IMG/VR virus record: IMGVR_UViG_2541047942_000003
Location: 1 to 32,640 of that record
From: a virus
Lineage: Duplodnaviria > Heunggongvirae > Uroviricota > Caudoviricetes
Direction: 5' to 3' (one strand)
Length of the DNA stretch: 32,640 bases
Positions 18,055 to 32,058 of this stretch are shown one piece after another. The notes beneath the pieces are model-generated. The model was not told the DNA's origin and did not search any database. It saw only the letters and a program-made list of their open reading frames with translations. Position numbers and translations under genes: made by a program. Within the stretch, counting starts at the first letter, position 1; every line of letters starts with the position of its first letter.

Positions 18055-18227
18055 TGTCAGGAGTCCTGAATAGTGATTAGAGGAGTCACATGTCGGCATC
18101 AGTTTCCCGACGATGCGCATCCTCCGCCATCAGTCCCGGATGGCTTATCACTGACACAACAGCACCTTAGCGAATCGCGGGGCGCGACTCAGTAGCCTTG
18201 CCGTGTATTCATCACGGCGAGGTATTC
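18055..18227. promoter_or_regulatory. Divergent late promoter region between O and P; contains a 6-bp inverted repeat (GCCGTG...CACGGC) in the P leader
   Basis: Intergenic position between divergently transcribed O and P, as in P2. I could not locate a canonical Ogr TGT-N12-ACA dyad by eye. Confidence 0.35.
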
Positions 18228-20000
18228 ATGACCATCACCACAGACACCACTCTTTTACACGACCCGCGTCGTCAGGCGGCGCTGCTGTACTGGCAGGGGT
18301 TTTCCGTGCCGCAGATTGCCGCCATGTTGCAGATGAAACGCCCGACGGTGCAGAGCTGGAAACAGCGCGACGGCTGGGACAGCGTTGCCCCCATCAGCCG
18401 TGTCGAAATGAGTCTGGAAGCGCGACTGACCCAGCTCATCATCAAACCGCAGAAAACCGGCGGTGACTTCAAGGAAATTGACCTGCTGGGACGCCAGATT
18501 GAACGACTGGCACGGGTCAACCGCTACAATCAGACCGGCAACGAGGCAGACCTTAATCCGAACATCGCTAACCGCAACAAAGGCGGGCGGCGCAAACCGA
18601 AAAAGAATTTTTTCAGCGACGAGGCTATCGAAAAGCTGGAGCAGATTTTCTTTGAGCAGTCTTTCGACTATCAGTTGCACTGGTATCGCGCCGGGCTTGA
18701 GCACCGCATCCGCGATATCCTGAAATCCCGCCAGATTGGCGCGACGTTTTATTTTTCCCGCGAGGCGCTGCTGCGCGCCCTGAAAACCGGCCATAACCAG
18801 ATTTTTCTGTCGGCCAGTAAAACGCAGGCGTATGTGTTCCGCGAATACATCATCGCCTTTGCCCGGCTGGTTGACGTTGACCTGACCGGTGACCCGATTG
18901 TCCTGGGCAATAACGGCGCAAAACTGATTTTTCTCGGCACCAACTCCAACACCGCACAGAGCCATAACGGCGACCTGTACGTCGACGAGATTTTCTGGAT
19001 CCCGAATTTTCAGGTACTGCGTAAGGTGGCATCAGGTATGGCCTCACAGAGTCACCTGCGCTCGACCTATTTCTCCACCCCGTCCACGCTGGCGCACGAC
19101 GCCTACCCGTTCTGGTCGGGTGAACTGTTCAACCGGGGACGCGCCAGCGCCGCCGAACGCGTGGAAATCGACGTCAGTCATAACGCCCTTGCCGGTGGGC
19201 TTCTCTGTGCGGACGGCCAGTGGCGGCAGATTGTCACCATTGAGGACGCCCTGAAAGGTGGCTGCACGCTGTTCGACATTGAGCAGCTCAAACGCGAAAA
19301 CAGCGCCGACGATTTTAAAAACCTGTTCATGTGTGAATTTGTTGACGACAAGGCGTCGGTGTTCCCGTTCGAGGAGCTGCAACGCTGCATGGTCGACACG
19401 CTGGAAGAATGGGAAGACTATGCGCCGTTTGCCGCGAATCCGTTCGGCTCCCGCCCGGTATGGATTGGTTACGACCCGTCACACCGTGGCGACAGTGCCG
19501 GATGCGTGGTGCTGGCACCGCCGGTGGTGGCCGGTGGCAAATTCAGAATACTTGAGCGTCACCAGTGGAAAGGCATGGACTTTGCCACTCAGGCGGAATC
19601 CATCCGCAAACTCACCGAAAAATACAACGTCGAATACATCGGTATTGATGCCACCGGCCTCGGTGTCGGCGTGTTCCAGCTCGTGCGCTCGTTCTATCCC
19701 GCCGCGCGCGATATCCGCTACACACCGGAAATGAAAACCGCAATGGTGCTCAAGGCAAAAGACGTTATCCGCCGTGGCTGTCTGGAATATGACGTCAGCG
19801 CCACCGACATCACCAGCTCGTTTATGGCTATCCGCAAGACCATGACCAGCAGCGGACGCAGCGCCACCTATGAGGCCAGCCGCAGCGAGGAAGCCAGCCA
19901 CGCCGACCTCGCCTGGGCGACCATGCACGCCCTGTTAAATGAGCCACTCACCGCCGGTATCAGCACCCCGCTGACATCCACCATTCTGGAGTTTTACTGA
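18228..20000 (+). CDS. P: Terminase ATPase (large) subunit gpP, 590 aa
   Basis: Translation from MTITTDTTLLHDPRRQAALLYWQGFSVPQIAAM... matches P2 gpP; start at the ATG at 18228. Confidence 0.9.
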   Translation: MTITTDTTLLHDPRRQAALLYWQGFSVPQIAAMLQMKRPTVQSWKQRDGWDSVAPISRVEMSLEARLTQLIIKPQKTGGDFKEIDLLGRQIERLARVNRYNQTGNEADLNPNIANRNKGGRRKPKKNFFSDEAIEKLEQIFFEQSFDYQLHWYRAGLEHRIRDILKSRQIGATFYFSREALLRALKTGHNQIFLSASKTQAYVFREYIIAFARLVDVDLTGDPIVLGNNGAKLIFLGTNSNTAQSHNGDLYVDEIFWIPNFQVLRKVASGMASQSHLRSTYFSTPSTLAHDAYPFWSGELFNRGRASAAERVEIDVSHNALAGGLLCADGQWRQIVTIEDALKGGCTLFDIEQLKRENSADDFKNLFMCEFVDDKASVFPFEELQRCMVDTLEEWEDYAPFAANPFGSRPVWIGYDPSHRGDSAGCVVLAPPVVAGGKFRILERHQWKGMDFATQAESIRKLTEKYNVEYIGIDATGLGVGVFQLVRSFYPAARDIRYTPEMKTAMVLKAKDVIRRGCLEYDVSATDITSSFMAIRKTMTSSGRSATYEASRSEEASHADLAWATMHALLNEPLTAGISTPLTSTILEFY

Positions 20001-21019
20001 TGAGCAAGAAAAAAGGGAAAACACCGCAACCTGCGGCAAAAAAAATGACCGCCAGCGCCCCGAAAATGGAGGCATTCACCTTTGGTGAGCCGGTGCCGGT
20101 ACTCGACCGCCGTGACATTCTGGATTACGTCGAGTGCATCAGTAACGGCAGATGGTATGAGCCGCCGGTCAGCTTTACCGGTCTGGCGAAAAGCCTGCGT
20201 GCTGCCGTGCATCACAGCTCGCCGATTTACGTCAAACGCAATATTCTGGCCTCGACATTTATCCCGCATCCGTGGCTTTCCCAGCAGGATTTCAGCCGCT
20301 TTGTGCTGGATTTTCTGGTGTTCGGTAATGCGTTTCTGGAAAAGCGTTACAGCACCACCGGTAAGGTCATCAGACTGGAAACCTCACCGGCAAAATATAC
20401 CCGCCGTGGCGTGGAGGAGGATGTTTACTGGTGGGTGCCGTCCTTCAACGAGCCGACAGCCTTCACGCCCGGCTCCGTGTTTCACCTGCTGGAGCCTGAT
20501 ATTAATCAGGAGCTGTACGGCCTGCCGGAATATCTCAGCGCCCTTAACTCTGCATGGCTGAATGAGTCGGCCACGCTGTTCCGCCGCAAGTATTACGAAA
20601 ACGGCGCACATGCCGGATACATCATGTACGTCACCGATGCCGTGCAGGATCGCAACGATATCGAAATGCTTCGCGAAAACATGGTGAAGTCGAAAGGCCG
20701 CAACAACTTTAAAAATCTATTTCTCTATGCCCCACAGGGGAAAGCCGACGGCATTAAAATTATCCCGCTCAGTGAAGTGGCAACGAAGGACGATTTTTTT
20801 AATATCAAAAAAGTCAGCGCCGCAGATCTGCTGGACGCACACCGCATCCCCTTTCAGTTGATGGGCGGCAAGCCGGAGAACGTCGGGTCACTGGGGGATA
20901 TTGAGAAAGTGGCAAAAGTATTTGTCCGTAATGAACTCATTCCATTACAGGAGAGAATAAAGTCAATAAATGAATGGTTAGATATGGAAGTCATAAAATT
21001 CCATGATTATAACTTATAA
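20000..21019 (+). CDS. Q: Portal protein gpQ; the last 25 or so codons are encoded by AT-rich DNA
   Basis: 339-aa translation matches P2 gpQ; DNA composition changes sharply near 20940. Confidence 0.9.
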   Translation: MSKKKGKTPQPAAKKMTASAPKMEAFTFGEPVPVLDRRDILDYVECISNGRWYEPPVSFTGLAKSLRAAVHHSSPIYVKRNILASTFIPHPWLSQQDFSRFVLDFLVFGNAFLEKRYSTTGKVIRLETSPAKYTRRGVEEDVYWWVPSFNEPTAFTPGSVFHLLEPDINQELYGLPEYLSALNSAWLNESATLFRRKYYENGAHAGYIMYVTDAVQDRNDIEMLRENMVKSKGRNNFKNLFLYAPQGKADGIKIIPLSEVATKDDFFNIKKVSAADLLDAHRIPFQLMGGKPENVGSLGDIEKVAKVFVRNELIPLQERIKSINEWLDMEVIKFHDYNL

Positions 21020-21061: not shown

Positions 21062-21769
21062 CTATATATACTTCCTTTTTATTCTACTTAATTCTATCAC
21101 CGATGAGGAATGACAAAATGACAAATTAATAGTATCGATATAATCCAAAATTTGACTCTCAACCTCGATAAAAATATTCTTGGGTCCATTACTAATCGAT
21201 ATACCGATTTCATCCAAAACAGCCATCATTTTTCTCTGATGAGTTTTATATTTATAGTCTTTATTTTCCTCTGTAATATGTGCATTAGCTTCCTCAATAA
21301 CACATTTGATTCTAGATATTATTTCTAGATAATCTCTCGAAACAGATATATCACCGCCCTGTGCTTCAGGAAACATAACCCTATACCATCTAAAAAAATT
21401 AACTTTCTCTGGATAGATGCTACTTCTTTTAGTTAACTCAGCACTTGCAAATTCTCTAAACATCGTCAGATGACTAGTATAATTACTATTGTTATTATTT
21501 TTAACTCCAGCGTTATATGTCATCAAAGCAATCATAACACCAAAAACGGTAACAAAAGTTGTTATAAGCCATCCAAATGCCTGAAAATACATCACTATAC
21601 CAGATGTTTTTTCCGCAAAAAATTTCAAGCACTGGCTATCAAAGCATATATCTCGTTCATATAGCCTTTCATTCTGAATAGTTTCCAAAAGAGAAATTAG
21701 CGAAAAAATCAAAAAAAGAACTGACGACACACCGACAATACATTTAAGAAGTCTAATATTTGCATTCAT
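21062..21769 (-). CDS. Two-TM membrane protein, 235 aa; candidate effector of the reverse transcriptase module
   Basis: Two predicted N-terminal hydrophobic helices (LLKCIVGVSSVLFLIFSLISLL and IVMYFQAFGWLITTFVTVFGVMIALM) and a soluble C-terminal domain; the start ATG overlaps the RT stop (ATGA); AT-rich. Confidence 0.6.
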   Translation of the reverse strand: MNANIRLLKCIVGVSSVLFLIFSLISLLETIQNERLYERDICFDSQCLKFFAEKTSGIVMYFQAFGWLITTFVTVFGVMIALMTYNAGVKNNNNSNYTSHLTMFREFASAELTKRSSIYPEKVNFFRWYRVMFPEAQGGDISVSRDYLEIISRIKCVIEEANAHITEENKDYKYKTHQRKMMAVLDEIGISISNGPKNIFIEVESQILDYIDTINLSFCHSSSVIELSRIKRKYI

Positions 21770-22956
21770 AATGGTTTTAAAGATGCCAATCTAGATTTAA
21801 AACACTCCAGTTTTTCTTTAAATGATTCAGATCGAGTAAGGATAATCATCTTATATCTCGTCAAATCATACTTTCTTTTATACCAATGTTTATTTTGATT
21901 ACCTTTCGAATACGACAACTCTAAACTTTTTATAGCTGCATCAATCACAGCAACATCTCTTTTAGATGGCATCGGTTTTATTGCCTGTAACTGTTTCTTG
22001 AATGATTCATATTTTTCATGCCCAACACGACCAAGCTTATTAACTCTCCCCATACATCTATTGAATTCTTTTCTGTATGCAACACTTGTTTTTGTATTAT
22101 TTTTTGCCGCCAGCAATTTCAAATTATGTATAGATGCCCTGATTCTTTTGACTTCATCAGATGGTAGTCGAGGTGAGTCATAGTCAACTCTTAAACCATG
22201 TACTTTTATAGGTTCAGATGAACAGTGAAATATTTTAGTTTTGTGCTTATTTATCGGCAAGTCATGCTCAGAAAGCATCCTCTCTATATGGCTTTGCATT
22301 TGAGAAAAATCATAATTACTTATTTTAGATGACACAGTAATATCATCTACCAAACGCGTATAAATAAGTCCTTTTCTCTGCGCACGCCTTACCACATCCC
22401 CTTCAACAGCGAATAAACACAAAGTTGCTATATAGCTTGATGTTAAGGCCCCCTGTACGACAAAATCATTCTTAGTACATATATCCACCAAGTATTCAAG
22501 AGCCTCATCCTTAATATGCAATATATCCTCAAACACGCTCCTAACCAGATCTCTATGAATATTATCGAAAAAATTACTTATATCCACCTTGAGAACTGTT
22601 TTTGCTCCACAATGAGCCTTTGCGCATGAAACATAGTCACGTTTGACGTTAGAATTTAAAACATCATTTTTACTAGGGACTGAACCAAACAAAAATGAAG
22701 GAAAAACCACCAATTCCTTAAAGATACGTTTATTAATTCTACTCTGTAATAATCTCATTTTAGGATGCAGGGAGTAGACAATCCGTTTGCTTCCGTCAAT
22801 TTTGGGAATTTCTTTTAGAGTATATTTCTCATCTAATGGTAGTTCTGCAATAGCTTTAAGCTCTTCAACAGAAATCGATAAAGCCTTTGACAGCTTTTCA
22901 AGTGTTGTGATAGGAGCATTGGATTTGCTGTATGGTTTAAATTTATCCATAAACAT
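21766..22956 (-). CDS. Retron-type reverse transcriptase, about 396 aa
   Basis: Motif order typical of retron RTs: LSKALSISVEEL, VLKVDISNFFDNI, QGALTSSYIATL, GLIYTRLVDDITVS (YADD position reads LVDD), KTKIF...VHG. The track start at 23040 is a TTG and is probably false; I place the start at the ATG ending at 22956 (MFMDKF), which is uncertain by a few tens of nt. Confidence 0.75.
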   Translation of the reverse strand: MFMDKFKPYSKSNAPITTLEKLSKALSISVEELKAIAELPLDEKYTLKEIPKIDGSKRIVYSLHPKMRLLQSRINKRIFKELVVFPSFLFGSVPSKNDVLNSNVKRDYVSCAKAHCGAKTVLKVDISNFFDNIHRDLVRSVFEDILHIKDEALEYLVDICTKNDFVVQGALTSSYIATLCLFAVEGDVVRRAQRKGLIYTRLVDDITVSSKISNYDFSQMQSHIERMLSEHDLPINKHKTKIFHCSSEPIKVHGLRVDYDSPRLPSDEVKRIRASIHNLKLLAAKNNTKTSVAYRKEFNRCMGRVNKLGRVGHEKYESFKKQLQAIKPMPSKRDVAVIDAAIKSLELSYSKGNQNKHWYKRKYDLTRYKMIILTRSESFKEKLECFKSRLASLKPL

Positions 22957-22973
22957 ACCATTCAAATTCAAAG

Positions 22974-23280
22974 TTACGTACGGTCTTCCCATACTCAAGG
23001 GTGGAACAGCAGAGATGCTTACATCAACAATTGTCAGCAACAGCCTCTGCTATCTTTCGACCGTACGTAATGTCGTCGGCTACAGCACCATCGTAGTTGA
23101 CGACGGTGGGGCCTCGCTGATAGGTCCATAGTGGACGCTTTTTTGTAAAAGCAAAAACTGACAATTTAGTATTGTTGACTGCCGCATACCAAGCGAATCG
23201 CTGGTGCGCTAAGAATAATGCAACAAAAAAATAAGAATTTCAATCGAGTAACTGCAAGCCAGCGACATCGTTTGGCGCGC
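22974..23280 (-). ncRNA. Structured noncoding region between cos and the RT start; candidate retron msr-msd or other RT-associated ncRNA; boundaries unresolved
   Basis: Perfect 12-bp inverted repeat TTACGTACGGTC / GACCGTACGTAA (23059-23070 and 22974-22985) enclosing a nested AGCAGAG / CTCTGCT repeat; a further hairpin at 23072-23104 and a palindrome GCTTTTTTGTAAAAGC at 23137-23152. Confidence 0.3.
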
Positions 23281-23281
23281 A

Positions 23282-23300
23282 GTGCTTTCCCCGCCTCGCC
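23282..23300 (-). other. cos: P2-type cos (19-nt cohesive-end sequence GGCGAGGCGGGGAAAGCAC on the minus strand)
   Basis: Reverse complement of 23282-23300 reads GGCGAGGCGGGGAAAGCAC followed by TGCGCGC, matching my recollection of the left end of the P2 genome. Confidence 0.65.
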
Positions 23301-23395
23301 CGCCCGCTTCATGGGGCGGTTTTGATGCAACCTCGTATTAAAGGGGACACCATAGCCCATCAAACCTCAGACTTCGCCCCTAGCTAACGTTTATG

Positions 23396-23422
23396 AATGC
23401 AATGTAATGCAACTTAATGCAA
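23396..23422 (+). promoter_or_regulatory. Three AATGCAA heptamers spaced exactly 10 bp apart, upstream of the helicase-nuclease gene; putative protein-binding sites
   Basis: AATGCAA at 23396, 23406 and 23416; followed by an AT-rich -10-like GATAAT (23434-23439) and an AAGAGG ribosome-binding site 7 nt before the ATG at 23484. Confidence 0.4.
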
Positions 23423-23483
23423 GTTATGGTAATGATAATTCTGCGTTAACAATTAAACTAATGTACCTGTAAGAGGATAAAAA

Positions 23484-25967
23484 ATGTCTGGTTTTTTCCT
23501 TGATTTAACCAAGCTTTCGCCCAGTGTAAATAGCGACACAGCGATTCCACCGCGAGATATATTTACAGCTCTACCGAGCAAAGACACCAAATTTCAATAC
23601 CCTCGAGATGTGCAATCAGAGGTCTGGGAAAAATGGTATGAAGCAAGGAGAAGCCCAACCAATGTAATAAAAATGAATACCGGAAGCGGTAAAACTTCAG
23701 TTGGGTTAATCATTCTTAAAAGCTGTATAAATGAAGGAGAAGGTCCCGCTGTATATGTTGTTCCTGACAACTATCTAGTTGAGCAAGTGGTTTTGGAGGC
23801 TAATCAACTTGGTATACCTGTAACTCAAGATGAGAGGTCCCCCAAATTTATTGCAGGTAAAGAAATTTTAGTTACAAATATATTCAAAGTGGTTAATGGA
23901 CGTTCTGCATTTGGCGTTGGAGATGATGGACAAAAAATACCAATAGGTTCTATAATAATTGACGATGCTCACGCTTGCCTTTCTTCAATTGAAGAACAAT
24001 TCTCCATTAGCATTCAAAAAAATAACCCTGCCTATGATAAATTATTCAGAATTTTTGAAAATTCACTAATGACACAAGCTGGTGCAAAAACACTAGAGAT
24101 AAAATCCGGCGATAGAAATGCTTATGTGAGAGTTCCATTTTGGAAATGGCAAGAAAGCATAAATGATATAATGACAATCTTGTTAGAAAATAAAGACCAT
24201 GATGACTTGAGTTTCAAATGGCCATTAATAAAAGACAATCTAATATTATCGAAATGCGTTGTAAGTGCTTCCAAAATAGAGATATCACCTCATTGCATAC
24301 CAATCCAAATGATCCCAAGCCTATCAAACGCAAGAAGAAAAATATTCATGACAGCTACTCTTGTCGATGAATCCATTCTAGCGAGCCACTTCGGAATAAC
24401 GGATGAATCACTCTCTAATCCGATAACACCAAAAACAATTGGTGATATTGGTGATAGAATGATACTAATGCCTCAGGTTATAAACCCTAGTCTTTCTGAT
24501 GTAGATATCAAAGCTATGTGCAAGGAGATATCCTCCAAACATAATGTTGTTGTAATTGTACCATCCGATTACAGAACTAGATTTTGGCAAGATGTTGCAG
24601 ACAGAATATTAGATAAAAATACAATTTATCAAGGTGTACAAGAATTAAGGACACAACATGTTGGCTTAGTAGTCCTAGTTAATAGATATGATGGTATTGA
24701 TTTACCAAATACCGCATGTCGTCTATTAGTAATAGATGGACTTCCTGACGTTCGTAGACTAATAGATAAAGTCTCACAAAGCTTATTGCTTGGAAGCGAA
24801 AAAACCAAAGATGAAATTATCCAGAAAATTGAACAAGGAATGGGGCGAGGAGTGAGATCAAGCGACGACTTCTGCGGAGTGATCTTACTTGGCAAAGCAT
24901 TAAATGGCGCTGTTTTCCTTGGCTCCTCCTTAGAAAGGTTTTCTCCAGCAACGAAAGCACAAATTCAACTTTCACAGCAATTGGTATCGATACTGCCGGA
25001 TACAACTATTGATTCAATCAAAGGTGCTCTTGATTATTGTCTGTTACGCAATTCTGACTGGGTCTCAAAAAGCAAAGGTATATTGACTGGCTTAACATTG
25101 GAAAATAAGCAGATTGACCAGCATACTATAAACAAAAGATTGGCATATGACTTAGCATCACGAAATATGTTTCAACAAGCCGCTTTAACTCTAAAAAATG
25201 ATAGTAGTACAGCTGACAAAGTTTATAAGGGTTATCTAAAAGAACATGCTGCGGAATATGTAAACTTATATGACAAATCTGAAGCTCAGATATTGCTTCA
25301 GTCTGCATCAAACGATAACTATCGGGTATTAAAACCACTAATCGGCGTAACATATAATAGACTTAATGGTGCGGCACTTGAACAGGCCAGGGAATGTAGC
25401 TCCTATCTCAGAAGTAATTTTGAATCGGCGAATCAAGTCGTTGTGCATACTAATTCAATAATAGAAAACCTTATTTTCTCCGAGGGCACATCGAATCCCT
25501 TCGAAGATGCTATCGAAAAAGTTGCATATTTGGTCGGTTTTCGTAGCCAACGGCCAGAAAATGATACAGGTAAAGGACCTGACAATTTATGGGCAATGGG
25601 AGAAAACAATTATCTAGTAATTGAATGCAAAAATGGAGCAACCGCAGAAAGAATAAGTAAGCATGACTGCAATCAGTTAAATGGGTCGGGTGCATGGTTC
25701 AGAAACATGTATGATCAAACTGCTACCGCCACACCTATAATGATACATCACTCTAACATGCCTGAATATGCCGCAACACTAAACGAAGGGTCTCGAATAA
25801 TGACCATAAATGATCTTGAACGTTTTAAAGCATCTATCCTCAGTTTTATCACGGCCATTTGTACAAGTGATAAACGACACGATGAGATATTTATAAGAGA
25901 ACAATTGATCACATGTAAATTACGTGCATCAGACATAGTTGAGACCTATACGCGAAACCCTCGTTAA
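23484..25967 (+). CDS. Helicase-nuclease fusion, 827 aa: Rad3/DinG-like SF2 helicase with a C-terminal PD-(D/E)xK-like motif; candidate single-gene defence protein
   Basis: Walker A NTGSGKT (aa 65-71), motif II IIIDDAHA (aa 157-164), motif III FMTATL, motif VI QGMGRGVRSSDDFCGVILLG, and C-terminal E...GPD(aa 700)...VIECK(aa 714-716); strong RBS; AT-rich; occupies the P2 old/tin position. Confidence 0.7.
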   Translation: MSGFFLDLTKLSPSVNSDTAIPPRDIFTALPSKDTKFQYPRDVQSEVWEKWYEARRSPTNVIKMNTGSGKTSVGLIILKSCINEGEGPAVYVVPDNYLVEQVVLEANQLGIPVTQDERSPKFIAGKEILVTNIFKVVNGRSAFGVGDDGQKIPIGSIIIDDAHACLSSIEEQFSISIQKNNPAYDKLFRIFENSLMTQAGAKTLEIKSGDRNAYVRVPFWKWQESINDIMTILLENKDHDDLSFKWPLIKDNLILSKCVVSASKIEISPHCIPIQMIPSLSNARRKIFMTATLVDESILASHFGITDESLSNPITPKTIGDIGDRMILMPQVINPSLSDVDIKAMCKEISSKHNVVVIVPSDYRTRFWQDVADRILDKNTIYQGVQELRTQHVGLVVLVNRYDGIDLPNTACRLLVIDGLPDVRRLIDKVSQSLLLGSEKTKDEIIQKIEQGMGRGVRSSDDFCGVILLGKALNGAVFLGSSLERFSPATKAQIQLSQQLVSILPDTTIDSIKGALDYCLLRNSDWVSKSKGILTGLTLENKQIDQHTINKRLAYDLASRNMFQQAALTLKNDSSTADKVYKGYLKEHAAEYVNLYDKSEAQILLQSASNDNYRVLKPLIGVTYNRLNGAALEQARECSSYLRSNFESANQVVVHTNSIIENLIFSEGTSNPFEDAIEKVAYLVGFRSQRPENDTGKGPDNLWAMGENNYLVIECKNGATAERISKHDCNQLNGSGAWFRNMYDQTATATPIMIHHSNMPEYAATLNEGSRIMTINDLERFKASILSFITAICTSDKRHDEIFIREQLITCKLRASDIVETYTRNPR

Positions 25968-26206: not shown

Positions 26207-28486
26207 TTACTCTGAATAACCAGAAAACCCACTCCACTCATCTACACTAGGATATGAAAATTGCTTTTCATTGTAATTGACGATCGCACCGCGTACTAAC
26301 GCCTCAAGCTCCCATCGCTGCGGCCTGATACCGTTTTGAGCAAGGTCAACGCGGATACGGGTGATTTGCATTCGTTCCGACCTGGTCAGTCTGGCCGATG
26401 GTGCAATTTCATGTGGTTTTAACGGGCTTCCGTTTCTTTGCTGACGACTTGGCGTTCTCCGACCGTGTTTTAATGCACCCCTGAGCGCCCTCACGACCTC
26501 CGGGTCATTCCATTCGATAACACCGTCATCAACCAGATTTAGCACTGCTGCGGCGTGCTCAGAAGGTGTGGGAGCCGGTAACGAAGTATCACCACCGGTG
26601 AGCTTTCCACAGTTATTGACAGGACTCCGAGGCGCGGCGATGCCGCTTTTTAAAGTCAAAGGCTCAAAGACCGGCACTTTCGGAACAATGCGCCAGTCCG
26701 TCGTTCTGGTGATATGAATATGACGCGCGCCGAGATGCGGCGCGTAAATGCCGACCACTCTCTCGACTTCTTCCTCATACTCGTTAACGTCATCCGACGG
26801 GCTACGGGCGACCCTGACAGTCTGACAATCGCGCGGGACATTTGCCCCACCCTGCGCGCTGATATACAACGCAAAATCACCACTGTCTGCGGCGGCGCGT
26901 GCAGCCTCGACGCGCTCGTCAAACTCATCAGCAATGCTGACGCCGCGAGGCAATTTGCGTAGTTCACGGTAAGCCCCCATTGTCGGCAGACCAACCGTTT
27001 TAAATTGCGGGATGCGCCACGTTGACGCCCATGCGGTAACAGCCGCGGCAGTGTCTTTCAGCGGTCTGCCGGTATCATTATCGAGCTGACCATCCAGTGC
27101 ATATCCGTCGATATTTTTTGAGATGTATTTCGCGATATACCCCGCAGCACCGCCCCGGTTAAGGTGTTTCGCCTGAAAACGGTTTCGCGCGGCTCCTCTT
27201 TCGTCGCCATCCTCTTTGAGCGCGTAGCGACGCATGATTTCAATAATCTGGTTACGCTGGCGTGGATTACAAAAAAGCATCATATGCCAGTGCGGCGTTC
27301 CGTCGTGGTGTGGCTCGACGACTCGCAAACCGTAGGCCTGTAAATCATTATCCTTGAATGCCGTGCGCATCAGGCTCCAGATGCGGCAGAGATAACGCTG
27401 AGCATCCTTTGGATTAAATGCCTCATCATTCCAGCCGTGATTTAGCTGGACGGTTTTACTTTCGCCTTTTCCGACCTGACGTGTCGGGTGATACTTTGAC
27501 GGCGCGGTCAGCGTGATAAACATCCCCACATCACCCTCTGCGGCGGCGTAACGCTCAATACCGGCAATGGTGTTCATCAGCTCCATCCGGCGAATTTCAG
27601 GATTAGAAATACTGCCCATCACCTTACTGATAAGGTCGATGCGTTCGCCGGTTTCCCTGTTTTCAAGGTCACACGATTTAAGAAATTCCAGATTTGCCTG
27701 GCGGCGCGCACGCACATCACGAATGGCATGTTTACTGGCATAAGGAGAACGGTCTTTATTGACCTCCCCGACAGCAATCAGTAACGCCTCATGCCAGCGC
27801 ATACGCTGGCCTTTAAGCTGATGAGTCCACCACTCATCGTTAAACAGGCGGGCAATAGCAGAATATGCCTGCCTCGTGGTCATCTGTCCTTTACGGTATT
27901 TTTTCCAGTAGAGAGGGGAAATATTGAAAGCACGTGCAGCGCCAGCAACATGACCATAGAGGTGAGCCTGCGCCTCATCCGTAAACAGCGATTCTTTCTC
28001 GCCATGCGCATCCACCCAGGCATCGCAGAGTTCCTCATACATCATGAAAAGCTGTGATGAGATACGGGCGGCAAACTTTTTCAGCTCCTTGTCATTCATT
28101 CCCGGCAGGCGCGCATAGTGGTCACGCTCTGCCAGAAACAGCAACGACGCGTCGGTGTTCATTTCATGGCGCTGATTCACACGCTCAATGCGCGGCCATA
28201 AACGACGCTGAAAAGTGGATGTGAGGAAATAAAACCCGTGCACCGGGCTTTTATTGCGCCGGATGTAGTCATAGCGTGAAGTAAACAGCGAGCGCAAAAA
28301 GTAAGGCAGGCGGTTAATCGTGGATAAAACACCTTGCACCTGACGCATCTCGTCACGTGTAAGGGGTCTTTCGCGCCCGACAGCCTCGCGTGGCGCGTTC
28401 CATGCATAAGCACCGGTAAACGCCTTACCGGTGCCTGCAGCAAATGCTGACGGAGGGACAAAACGCCCGGAGGCTTTAACGGCCAT
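26207..28486 (-). CDS. A: Replication initiation protein gpA (rolling-circle nickase), 759 aa
   Basis: Translation from MAVKASGRFVPPSAFAAGTGKAF... matches P2 gpA; start placed at the ATG ending at 28486 rather than the track start at 28528. Confidence 0.9.
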   Translation of the reverse strand: MAVKASGRFVPPSAFAAGTGKAFTGAYAWNAPREAVGRERPLTRDEMRQVQGVLSTINRLPYFLRSLFTSRYDYIRRNKSPVHGFYFLTSTFQRRLWPRIERVNQRHEMNTDASLLFLAERDHYARLPGMNDKELKKFAARISSQLFMMYEELCDAWVDAHGEKESLFTDEAQAHLYGHVAGAARAFNISPLYWKKYRKGQMTTRQAYSAIARLFNDEWWTHQLKGQRMRWHEALLIAVGEVNKDRSPYASKHAIRDVRARRQANLEFLKSCDLENRETGERIDLISKVMGSISNPEIRRMELMNTIAGIERYAAAEGDVGMFITLTAPSKYHPTRQVGKGESKTVQLNHGWNDEAFNPKDAQRYLCRIWSLMRTAFKDNDLQAYGLRVVEPHHDGTPHWHMMLFCNPRQRNQIIEIMRRYALKEDGDERGAARNRFQAKHLNRGGAAGYIAKYISKNIDGYALDGQLDNDTGRPLKDTAAAVTAWASTWRIPQFKTVGLPTMGAYRELRKLPRGVSIADEFDERVEAARAAADSGDFALYISAQGGANVPRDCQTVRVARSPSDDVNEYEEEVERVVGIYAPHLGARHIHITRTTDWRIVPKVPVFEPLTLKSGIAAPRSPVNNCGKLTGGDTSLPAPTPSEHAAAVLNLVDDGVIEWNDPEVVRALRGALKHGRRTPSRQQRNGSPLKPHEIAPSARLTRSERMQITRIRVDLAQNGIRPQRWELEALVRGAIVNYNEKQFSYPSVDEWSGFSGYSE

Positions 28487-28751
28487 ATGAGCCAAAAGCC
28501 TCTGAACAACGCTTGCTGAGTTGCTCAACCTGCGCGTTTAAATCAGCAAAAGACTTTGCGCTTCCGGTCAGAATATCGTGATGCATCAGGCCGGAAACGA
28601 GCTGGCTTAATTTCGGGTAATAACCAACCACCGCCAGCCATTCCTGACCGGCGTTTTTACCGCTTTCCGCTCTCTTTTTCTCGTGGAGAATAAACTGGAA
28701 GCTGTCACTGGTAACGACATAACGTTCGCCAATTTCAATACGAATACTCAT
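28476..28751 (-). CDS. Small early-operon protein, 91 aa, at the P2 orf83 position
   Basis: Lies upstream of A in the cox-B-A operon; assigned by synteny only. Confidence 0.6.
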   Translation of the reverse strand: MSIRIEIGERYVVTSDSFQFILHEKKRAESGKNAGQEWLAVVGYYPKLSQLVSGLMHHDILTGSAKSFADLNAQVEQLSKRCSEAFGSYGR

Positions 28752-31044: not shown

Positions 31045-32058
31045 ATGGCAATCAAAAAACTCGATGATGGTCGATATGAAGTGGACATCCGCCCTACTGG
31101 ACGTAATGGAAAACGCATCCGTAGGAAGTTTGATAAGAAAAGCGAAGCTGTCGCTTTCGAGAAATACACGTTGTACAACCACCACAATAAAGAATGGCTA
31201 TCAAAACCAACAGACAAGCGACGTCTGTCGGAGCTGACACAGATCTGGTGGGATTTAAAGGGTAAACACGAAGAGCATGGGAAATCTAATCTTGGAAAAA
31301 TTGAAATCTTCACAAAAATAACGAATGACCCATGCGCATTTCAAATTACGAAATCGCTTATCAGCCAGTACTGCGCCACCCGAAGAAGTCAGGGTATTAA
31401 ACCTTCGAGTATCAATCGTGATTTAACATGTATTAGCGGCATGTTTACAGCCCTGATTGAAGCGGAGTTATTCTTTGGTGAGCACCCTATCAGAGGGACA
31501 AAAAGGCTTAAGGAGGAAAAACCAGACACAGGCTATCTCACGCAGGAAGAAATTGCCTTACTGCTTGCTGCTCTTGACGGCGACAATAAAAAGATTGCGA
31601 TTCTTTGCCTGAGTACTGGAGCACGTTGGGGAGAAGCAGCTCGTTTGAAAGCAGAAAATATCATCCATAACCGCGTCACGTTTGTTAAAACGAAAACAAA
31701 CAAACCACGCACCGTCCCGATCTCAGAGGCTGTTGCCAAAATGATCGCGGATAACAAACGAGGTTTTTTATTCCCTGATGCTGATTACCCTCGCTTCAGA
31801 CGAACAATGAAAGCAATAAAACCGGATTTGCCAATGGGGCAAGCCACACATGCACTAAGGCACAGCTTTGCCACTCATTTCATGATTAATGGAGGAAGTA
31901 TTATCACGCTACAACGGATACTAGGTCACACGCGGATTGAGCAAACTATGGTTTACGCTCACTTTGCGCCAGAGTACCTTCAGGACGCCATTTCTCTTAA
32001 TCCGCTAAGAGGTGGTACTGAGGCCGAGAGTGTCCACACAGTGTCCACAGTAGAGTAA
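31045..32058 (+). CDS. int: Tyrosine integrase
   Basis: 337-aa translation matches P2 Int, with HALRHSFATH and a C-terminal catalytic Tyr region (MVYAHF); adjacent to attL. Confidence 0.92.
   Translation: MAIKKLDDGRYEVDIRPTGRNGKRIRRKFDKKSEAVAFEKYTLYNHHNKEWLSKPTDKRRLSELTQIWWDLKGKHEEHGKSNLGKIEIFTKITNDPCAFQITKSLISQYCATRRSQGIKPSSINRDLTCISGMFTALIEAELFFGEHPIRGTKRLKEEKPDTGYLTQEEIALLLAALDGDNKKIAILCLSTGARWGEAARLKAENIIHNRVTFVKTKTNKPRTVPISEAVAKMIADNKRGFLFPDADYPRFRRTMKAIKPDLPMGQATHALRHSFATHFMINGGSIITLQRILGHTRIEQTMVYAHFAPEYLQDAISLNPLRGGTEAESVHTVSTVE

Follow-up and report, generated by a model that had tools for sequence, protein, structure and literature searches.

The structured leader of a type IV reverse transcriptase gene in a P2-like prophage is very probably the RNA gene of a close Retron-Eco6 (Ec48) allele

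The retron Ec48, listed in the retron census as Retron-Eco6, is a well-studied antiviral defence system. Its defence activity needs both the activity of the reverse transcriptase (RT) and a two-transmembrane (2TM) effector (Millman et al.), and the effector is triggered when phage proteins, for instance lambda Gam or T7 gp5.9, inhibit RecBCD, resulting in abortive infection and cell death. The DNA product, msDNA-Ec48, is reported to be 48 nt long, or 45 nt by sequencing, and in Eco6 RNase H1 gives the cDNA a better-defined 3' end. In canonical retrons, terminal a1 and a2 repeats close the msr-msd RNA, and the branching G lies directly after a2. Retrons also belong to the known cargo of the interval between gpA and gpQ, which has been published as the cos-proximal defence hotspot of P2-like phages.

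The locus analyzed here lies in such an interval. The window, i.e., the whole stretch of 32,640 nucleotides that was analyzed, is a P2-like prophage whose left border adjoins the sRNA gene cyaR (CyaR/RyeE, nt 83–168 on the plus strand, 100.7 bits), a position that matches a known P2 attachment site. Tail and head genes follow cyaR, and after them come the terminase gene (18198–20000) and the portal gene Q (20000–21019), while the right end carries the replication gene A (26207–28528, Pfam Phage_GPA) and an ORF at 31045–32058 that, by its position as in P2, is a putative integrase gene. Between Q and A are found a 235-aa ORF (21062–21769, minus strand, PADLOC 2TM_IV), an RT ORF (listed as 21766–23040, minus strand, PADLOC RT_IV), the structured region that concerns us, and an 827-aa helicase-like ORF (23484–25967, plus strand) that matches PADLOC PDC-S28 over its full length with 1055 bits and contains ResIII, DEAD and Helicase_C_2 domains.

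Close copies of the retron cassette exist elsewhere. A uropathogenic E. coli (UPEC) strain has 97.6% identical DNA, in which RefSeq annotates a 'reverse transcriptase family protein' and a 'retron Ec48 family effector membrane protein', and phage pro147 carries the same cassette in approximately 97% identical DNA, with the effector annotated under the same Ec48 family name. In both of these the slot taken by the PDC-S28 gene in our window holds an 'RNA-directed DNA polymerase' gene instead (L001 5491–7038 in the UPEC strain, L089 4208–5530 in pro147), so that two RT genes flank cos in those prophages. Close retron relatives also occur in other mobile contexts (L084 381–599, L082 1–50, L087 2613–3422): a Providencia relative adjoins Ogr/Delta-like and primase-like genes and other relatives adjoin integrase genes. 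This variety of settings indicates that the cassette moves between types of element.

The RT itself is readily classified. The 394-aa protein encoded at 21766–22950 (minus strand, ATG 22950) matches PADLOC RT_IV with an E-value of 8.3e-177 over the full profile, compared with 4e-63 for RT_V and 7.6e-54 for RT_VI as the next profiles, and Pfam RVT_1 with 1.7e-31. The catalytic V-D-D residues are at 201–203, and the surrounding motif Y197-T-R-L-V-D202-D203 is invariant or nearly so (≥90%) across 21 homologues. Exact-sequence look-ups of two close RT homologues (P0002 and P0006) gave no match. The downstream gene (21062–21769, minus strand), whose start overlaps the RT stop codon by 4 nt, encodes an Ec48-family two-transmembrane effector (PADLOC 2TM_IV, 8.7e-85), and its homologues in related loci carry the domain PF28197 Retron_Ec48_antiviral.

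Where the RT begins matters for everything upstream of it, because a start at TTG 23040, or at ATG 22992, would mean that the repeats discussed below are translated as coding sequence. The frame is indeed open from TTG 23040, and ATG 22992 is used by some gene callers as well as agreeing with published numbering: the catalytic residues D216/D217 of Ec48 (Millman et al.) are D202/D203 here plus 14 codons, which places the start of that ORF at ATG 22992 and gives the 408-aa form. Nevertheless, we regard translation through the repeats as very unlikely, and the preliminary description was right to suspect the TTG-initiated extension. Homologues are mostly 394–396 aa long, the RefSeq start is ATG 22950, the RT_IV profile match begins at residue 36 of the 424-aa ORF, and tblastn matches in other genera begin at residues 1–6 of the 394-aa protein. 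The extension would moreover cross covarying RNA helices, and the changes seen upstream are paired compensatory substitutions of the kind expected of RNA helices. Finally, the AUG corresponding to ATG 22992 (nt 22990–22992, within UAUGG), which sits in the loop of a small hairpin that we call H4, is not in the RT reading frame in Pseudomonas (L006), so that the motif is conserved as RNA.

To identify the upstream region we compared it with the reference ncRNA and the sequenced RT-DNA of Retron-Eco6, both from the supplement of the retron census (PMC10849725). On the minus strand, the Eco6 ncRNA corresponds to 23229→23044 with three substitutions and three one-base gaps, and at least two of the gaps look like machine-read text errors because the RT-DNA string of the same entry matches the window at those places. 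The Eco6 RT-DNA aligns to the plus strand from 23063, and the two reported lengths then put the msDNA at 23063–23110 (48 nt) or 23063–23107 (45 nt). The msd template thus occupies 23063–23110 on the minus strand, with a DNA product reading 23063→23110 on the plus strand, GTACGTAAT-stem-loop-stem-GGTGGG; folded as DNA, the 48-mer forms a hairpin of 12–13 bp with a 9-nt 5' tail. An imperfect hairpin had been described at 23072–23104, and we find it there with 12-nt arms, ten Watson-Crick and two G-T pairs, and a 9-nt loop. Given the mapping of the RT-DNA, this hairpin is the msDNA stem-loop, and by near-identity with Eco6 it is expected to give rise to msDNA.

The differences from the published Eco6 sequence are small: the last base of the msd loop is U here and C there, and two substitutions fall in the bulge of an msr segment (LR5, see below). 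A search of the region against Rfam returned no match at the gathering score, with chance-level hits alone at E ≤ 10. Of the identities that had been suggested for the region, a retron msr-msd is correct, and an additional RT-regulating role is possible: the sequence is nearly identical to the ncRNA and RT-DNA of Retron-Eco6 and adjoins a type IV RT with a 2TM effector. We conclude with high confidence that 23243–22970 on the minus strand comprises the promoter and msr-msd gene of a type IV retron that is a close allele of Retron-Eco6.

The inverted repeats that first drew attention to the region are largely as described. The perfect 12-bp repeat consists of TTACGTACGGTC at 22974–22985 and its exact reverse complement at 23059–23070, 73 nt apart, and the 12-mer occurs at just these two sites in the entire window; allowing up to one mismatch, approximately 0.13 matches are expected, and one of 100 shuffles reached two. 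A full-text literature search for the 12-mer had its sole match in an unrelated paper. Enclosed within the repeat are the nested 7-bp repeat AGCAGAG/CTCTGCT (23008–23014 and 23045–23051) and the CAATTG palindrome (23028–23033), both present where they were reported. The spacing of 18 nt between the end of the repeat and the RT start is correct if counted to ATG 22956; to ATG 22950, the start common to homologues, the distance is 24 nt. The '16-bp palindrome' at 23137–23152 is correctly located, but it is not a perfect palindrome: it is a 6-bp stem with a 4-nt loop, GCTTTT-TTGT-AAAAGC. RNA folding, which had been proposed as a check, gives −41.8 kcal/mol for the minus strand of 22970–23075, compared with −23.6 ± 3.0 for shuffled sequences (z = −6.2, none of 200 shuffles being as good), and the 351-nt leader as a whole folds with z = −3.95.

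For comparison we assembled 50 type IV loci from species-representative genomes, those of Pseudomonas, Marinobacter, Aliivibrio, Aeromonas and Proteus among them, together with seven closer relatives. In an inverted-repeat scan of these loci three pairings recur, each at a set distance from the RT start, with sequences that differ between lineages. In an alignment of 53 sequences (A2), RNAalifold independently predicts six helices, which we label H1, H2, H3, O, I and H4, and 37 of the 39 RNAalifold pairs show compensatory changes across the 53 loci. A further pairing, LR, connects two distant segments. Taking all helices and LR together, 89% of cells are paired, compared with 34–44% when the partners are slid, and the covariation score is 0.683 against 0.10–0.17 for slid partners; none of 500 shuffles matches the observed values.

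Read along the minus strand from its 5' end, the RNA is predicted to begin with hairpin H1 (23181–23209), GCGCACCAGCG-AUU-CGCUUGG...UGCGGC, the inner stem of which is predicted by RNAalifold; six of seven pairs have compensatory changes and 93.8% of cells are paired. It is followed by LR5 (23158–23178), UCAACAAU...AAUUGUCAG, an msr segment recovered through the inverted repeats I6 and I9. Hairpin H2 (23137–23152), which is the '16-bp palindrome' mentioned above, has covariation at four of five pairs and 94% of cells paired, and H3 (23124–23136), GUCC-ACUAU-GGAC, directly abuts it, with covariation at all four pairs and 91.5% pairing; both are RNAalifold predictions. The msd template comes next. 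Set among otherwise variable hairpins, the 3' arm of its stem contains a near-invariant G-U-A-G (23080–23083, minus strand, approximately columns 233–236 of A2), which reads CTAC in the msDNA and is a possible site of recognition by the RT, the effector or a host factor.

The template runs into the 12-bp repeat. Its upstream arm, O5 (23059–23070), is supported by the inverted repeat and by covariation; the outer 8 nt (23063–23070) are the first template bases, whereas the inner 4 nt, GGUC, are kept as GGYC throughout the family. Inside it lies the inner stem I, with a 5' arm I5 (23042–23054) made of the nested 7-bp repeat plus a GCU extension and covarying at ten of ten pairs, and a 3' arm I3 (23005–23019) found both by RNAalifold and by covariation. 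The loop of this inner hairpin, LR3 (23024–23037), CUGACAAUUGUUGA, contains the CAATTG palindrome and is complementary to LR5, so that the two would form a pseudoknot or an alternative helix. After I3 comes H4 (22988–23001), CCC-UUGAGUAU-GGG, with 95.6% of cells paired and a highly conserved loop sequence (CCCU..G.UAUGG) that includes ATG 22992, the RT start of some annotations. The downstream arm of the repeat, O3 (22974–22985), then closes a three-way junction of O, I and H4.

The 12-bp repeat in particular is a conserved helix in this sense: in helix O ten of ten scored pairs show compensatory changes and 92.9% are paired across the 53 loci. For LR, one half (columns 38–42/315–319) is 94.6% paired with covariation at five of five pairs, and the other half is 71% paired because the MAFFT register slips by one column in the Pseudomonas group. 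An alignment-free test, in which the duplex energies of cognate arms are compared with those of arms taken from unrelated loci, leads to the same picture: −19.6 versus −8.1 kcal/mol for helix O, −13.4 versus −5.2 kcal/mol for stem I, and −16.7 versus −8.3 kcal/mol for LR. Within the Ec48 subgroup, helix O is preserved despite several double substitutions in two relatives whose RTs are 59–60% identical (L084 and L087). A covariance model of the 3' domain (R1), another of the proposed checks, hits the window once, at 22972–23071 on the minus strand with 85.8 bits; nearly all type IV loci have a match upstream of the RT, eleven of them from outside the seed, and the 27 loci with distant RTs have none. 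On the strength of these sequence comparisons, the 12-bp repeat is a conserved helix that closes a three-way-junction domain of approximately 100 nt between msd and the RT start, and the contact of the CAATTG loop with msr is covarying and appears pseudoknot-like, with LR and stem I either coexisting or alternating.

The preliminary description also considered that the region could be part of a cos-proximal packaging signal, and cos is in fact nearby. The record of phage L-413C begins at the cohesive end, and its nt 1–26 match 23300→23275 exactly, identifying a P2-type cohesive end and placing the structured region 200–300 nt inside the left genome end, and the P2 defence hotspot is known to flank cos. 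The repeats could then be terminase binding sites, but several observations make this extremely unlikely. Conservation across more than 2,000 E. coli genomes is confined to 23275–23330, the 55-nt cos core, which is the only part of the query that these genomes have in common. Retron-less P2 phages are unrelated to the window between cos and Q and have no counterpart of 22974–23152. Type IV RTs of Pseudomonas, Marinobacter, Aliivibrio and other genomes come with this RNA architecture too, and the gene tables of four related loci list neither head nor packaging genes of phages in the 1.5 kb on either side. The covariation, too, fits a folded RNA rather than protein-binding DNA repeats. Thus, the proximity of cos stands, whereas the repeats belong to the retron.

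In the retron-less P2 phages the end of Q is approximately 190 nt from cos; the retron cassette is therefore inserted between the two, and the retron promoter now begins approximately 30 nt from the conserved cos core. In P2, old and tin lie on the gene A side of cos, but the retron is on the gene Q side; the PDC-S28 gene, on the side of gene A, is by its profile match a second candidate defence cargo. A reading of the 55-nt stretch as a small dispersed repeat was rejected, as the stretch is the cos core of P2. This core is overlapped by a terminator-like hairpin, CCGCCC...GGGCGG with TTTT after it (23300–23319, plus strand). Between cos and the PDC-S28 gene, AATGCAA occurs three times, exactly and 10 nt apart (23396–23422), and a fourth copy, ATGCAA(C) at 23325–23331, abuts the cos core; this phasing suggests a protein-binding array, for a terminase or a regulator.

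The 5' end of the RNA can be predicted from its promoter. A scan of 22700–23500 finds a single promoter-like site, a sigma-70 promoter at 23215–23243 on the minus strand with a −35 element TTGAAA (23243–23238), a 17-nt spacer and a −10 element CATTAT (23220–23215). In 42 of the 53 loci the best sigma-70-like site ends 5–9 nt before the conserved first G of H1, from which we infer that the native RNA most likely begins at H1, with a predicted transcript start at approximately 23209–23207; the 3' end is likewise a prediction. A start at H1 leaves no space for a 5' a2 arm, and the U-rich 5' stretch of the census ncRNA would then be promoter spacer. Consistent with this, a comparison of the 60 nt upstream of H1 with the region past the template start in 50 loci gives a duplex z of approximately 0, i.e., no conserved a1/a2. 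Weak, G-U-rich complementarity does exist in the window between 23222–23234 and 23050–23062, inside the predicted promoter spacer. Helices O and LR may therefore stand in place of the a1/a2 duplex. As a tentative generalization, which we put at somewhat below even chances, type IV RNAs start at the first msr hairpin without a1/a2, and the 3' domain of approximately 100 nt together with the msr contact of 15–18 bp substitutes for them. If so, the 3' domain would position the primer and join the two RNA halves once the template is degraded.

The first template base, C23063, lies in arm O5, four pairs from the three-way junction, and those four pairs are conserved as GGYC/GRCC. In the sequence of the window, G22981, beside GACC and facing the first template base, fits the geometry of a branching G. 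As a family-wide primer, however, G22981 was rejected: L084 and most other lineages have an A there. No invariant unpaired G can be assigned as the branching G in the type IV alignment, and the supplements of Mestre 2020, Simon 2019 and Palka 2022 do not contain a branch-point sequence. A 'permuted' model of priming, with G22981 or, after 4-nt 5' trimming, G22985 as primer, fits the sequence of the window and may apply here. As a lead in this direction, the published Eco6 RT-DNA string spans the whole 5' domain to 23222, which is easier to explain with a primer 3' of msd; the census entry (PMC10849725) uses the Eco6 data of Palka et al., in which RT-DNA lengths are far broader without RNase H1.

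Putting these elements together, we propose the following sequence of events. The sigma-70 promoter would start an RNA at H1 that consists of the three msr hairpins H1–H3, the msd hairpin and the 3' domain, and the RT encoded downstream would copy 23110←23063 into an msDNA of approximately 48 nt. In the unprocessed RNA, helix O joins the first 8 template bases and GGUC to a segment that ends 24 nt ahead of the RT start. The O/I/H4 junction, with LR, may then be a scaffold that is recognised by the RT and presents the template start, replacing a1/a2. Helix O would be found in the precursor alone: the RT would open it by copying its outer 8 bases, and RNase H would then remove the RNA template strand, as it does in other retrons. 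The census entry bears on how far this helix is needed: its ncRNA, which ends at 23044 without the downstream repeat arm, is listed with low-level editing (0.66%, or 0.2× that of Eco1), so that helix O may help cDNA synthesis without being strictly required for it.

An alternative is that the 3' domain is mainly a cis-regulatory leader, a terminator, an attenuator or a translational control element that sets the ratio of ncRNA to RT/effector mRNA. A U-rich, partly conserved tract follows helix O (CUUUGAAUUU here, CUAUUUUUAA in Pseudomonas), and copying of the first 8 template bases would release O3, which lies just upstream of the ribosome-binding region of the RT. In type VI retrons, the sister group, an extended structured RNA is released from translational repression by msDNA, and the type IV leader might respond to msDNA synthesis in the same way as the type VI hybrid RNA, a role that is compatible with one in the ncRNA. 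However, a terminator scan of the minus strand of the region returned no match, the stem encloses 73 nt, which is atypical of an intrinsic terminator, and the RT start and the purine-rich stretch upstream of it are outside the helix. The strongly conserved loops (GAUGAAUGCA and CCCU..UAUGG) also look more like sites of protein binding or tertiary contact. We therefore consider a mainly regulatory function unlikely, at roughly one chance in five, and favour the proposed scaffold.

The retron system as such is already known, as retron Ec48, and the sole new angle is a 3' RNA domain that is possibly under-described. The domain and the LR contact are well supported by covariation, and we find no description of them in the searchable papers; the scaffold role that we propose for them, if correct, would bear on priming geometry, possibly with a primer 3' of msd, for which we likewise found no description. 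What had been a structured leader is now explained as the RNA gene of a RecBCD-guarding defence system, with the RT start corrected and the retron separated from cos. For practical purposes, the commonly used definition of the ncRNA cuts off both the 3' domain and LR, which matters for the engineering of Eco6 (DNA production and editing) and for priming in clade 3.

The window and Retron-Eco6 have nearly identical ncRNAs and RT-DNAs, the same RT type and a 2TM effector, and both carriers are P2-like (cf. pro147). The published Eco6 census ncRNA ends at 23044, whereas the conserved structure described here continues for approximately 75 nt, to approximately 22970. As in canonical retrons such as Retron-Eco1 (Ec86), the ncRNA gene is just upstream of the RT on the same strand, msr hairpins precede the reverse-transcribed msd, and RNase H1 helps to set the 3' end of the cDNA. 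Unlike in canonical retrons, the RNA would start at H1, the template start lies within a helix formed with sequence downstream of msd, and a segment of msr pairs with the loop of a downstream hairpin. Another parallel is offered by type VI retrons (Retron-Vpa2; RT clade 3, the sister group), whose structured RNA also runs far past msr-msd and has additional arms that inverted repeats connect. In type VI, a small toxic effector is encoded in the extension, which hides the ribosome-binding site of that effector, whereas in the type IV extension of approximately 100 nt no conserved reading frame was seen, judging from the frame of the H4 AUG in Pseudomonas. Unlike in type VI, moreover, the type IV effector is encoded by a 2TM gene of its own that follows the RT, and the msDNA of Eco6 is made constitutively.
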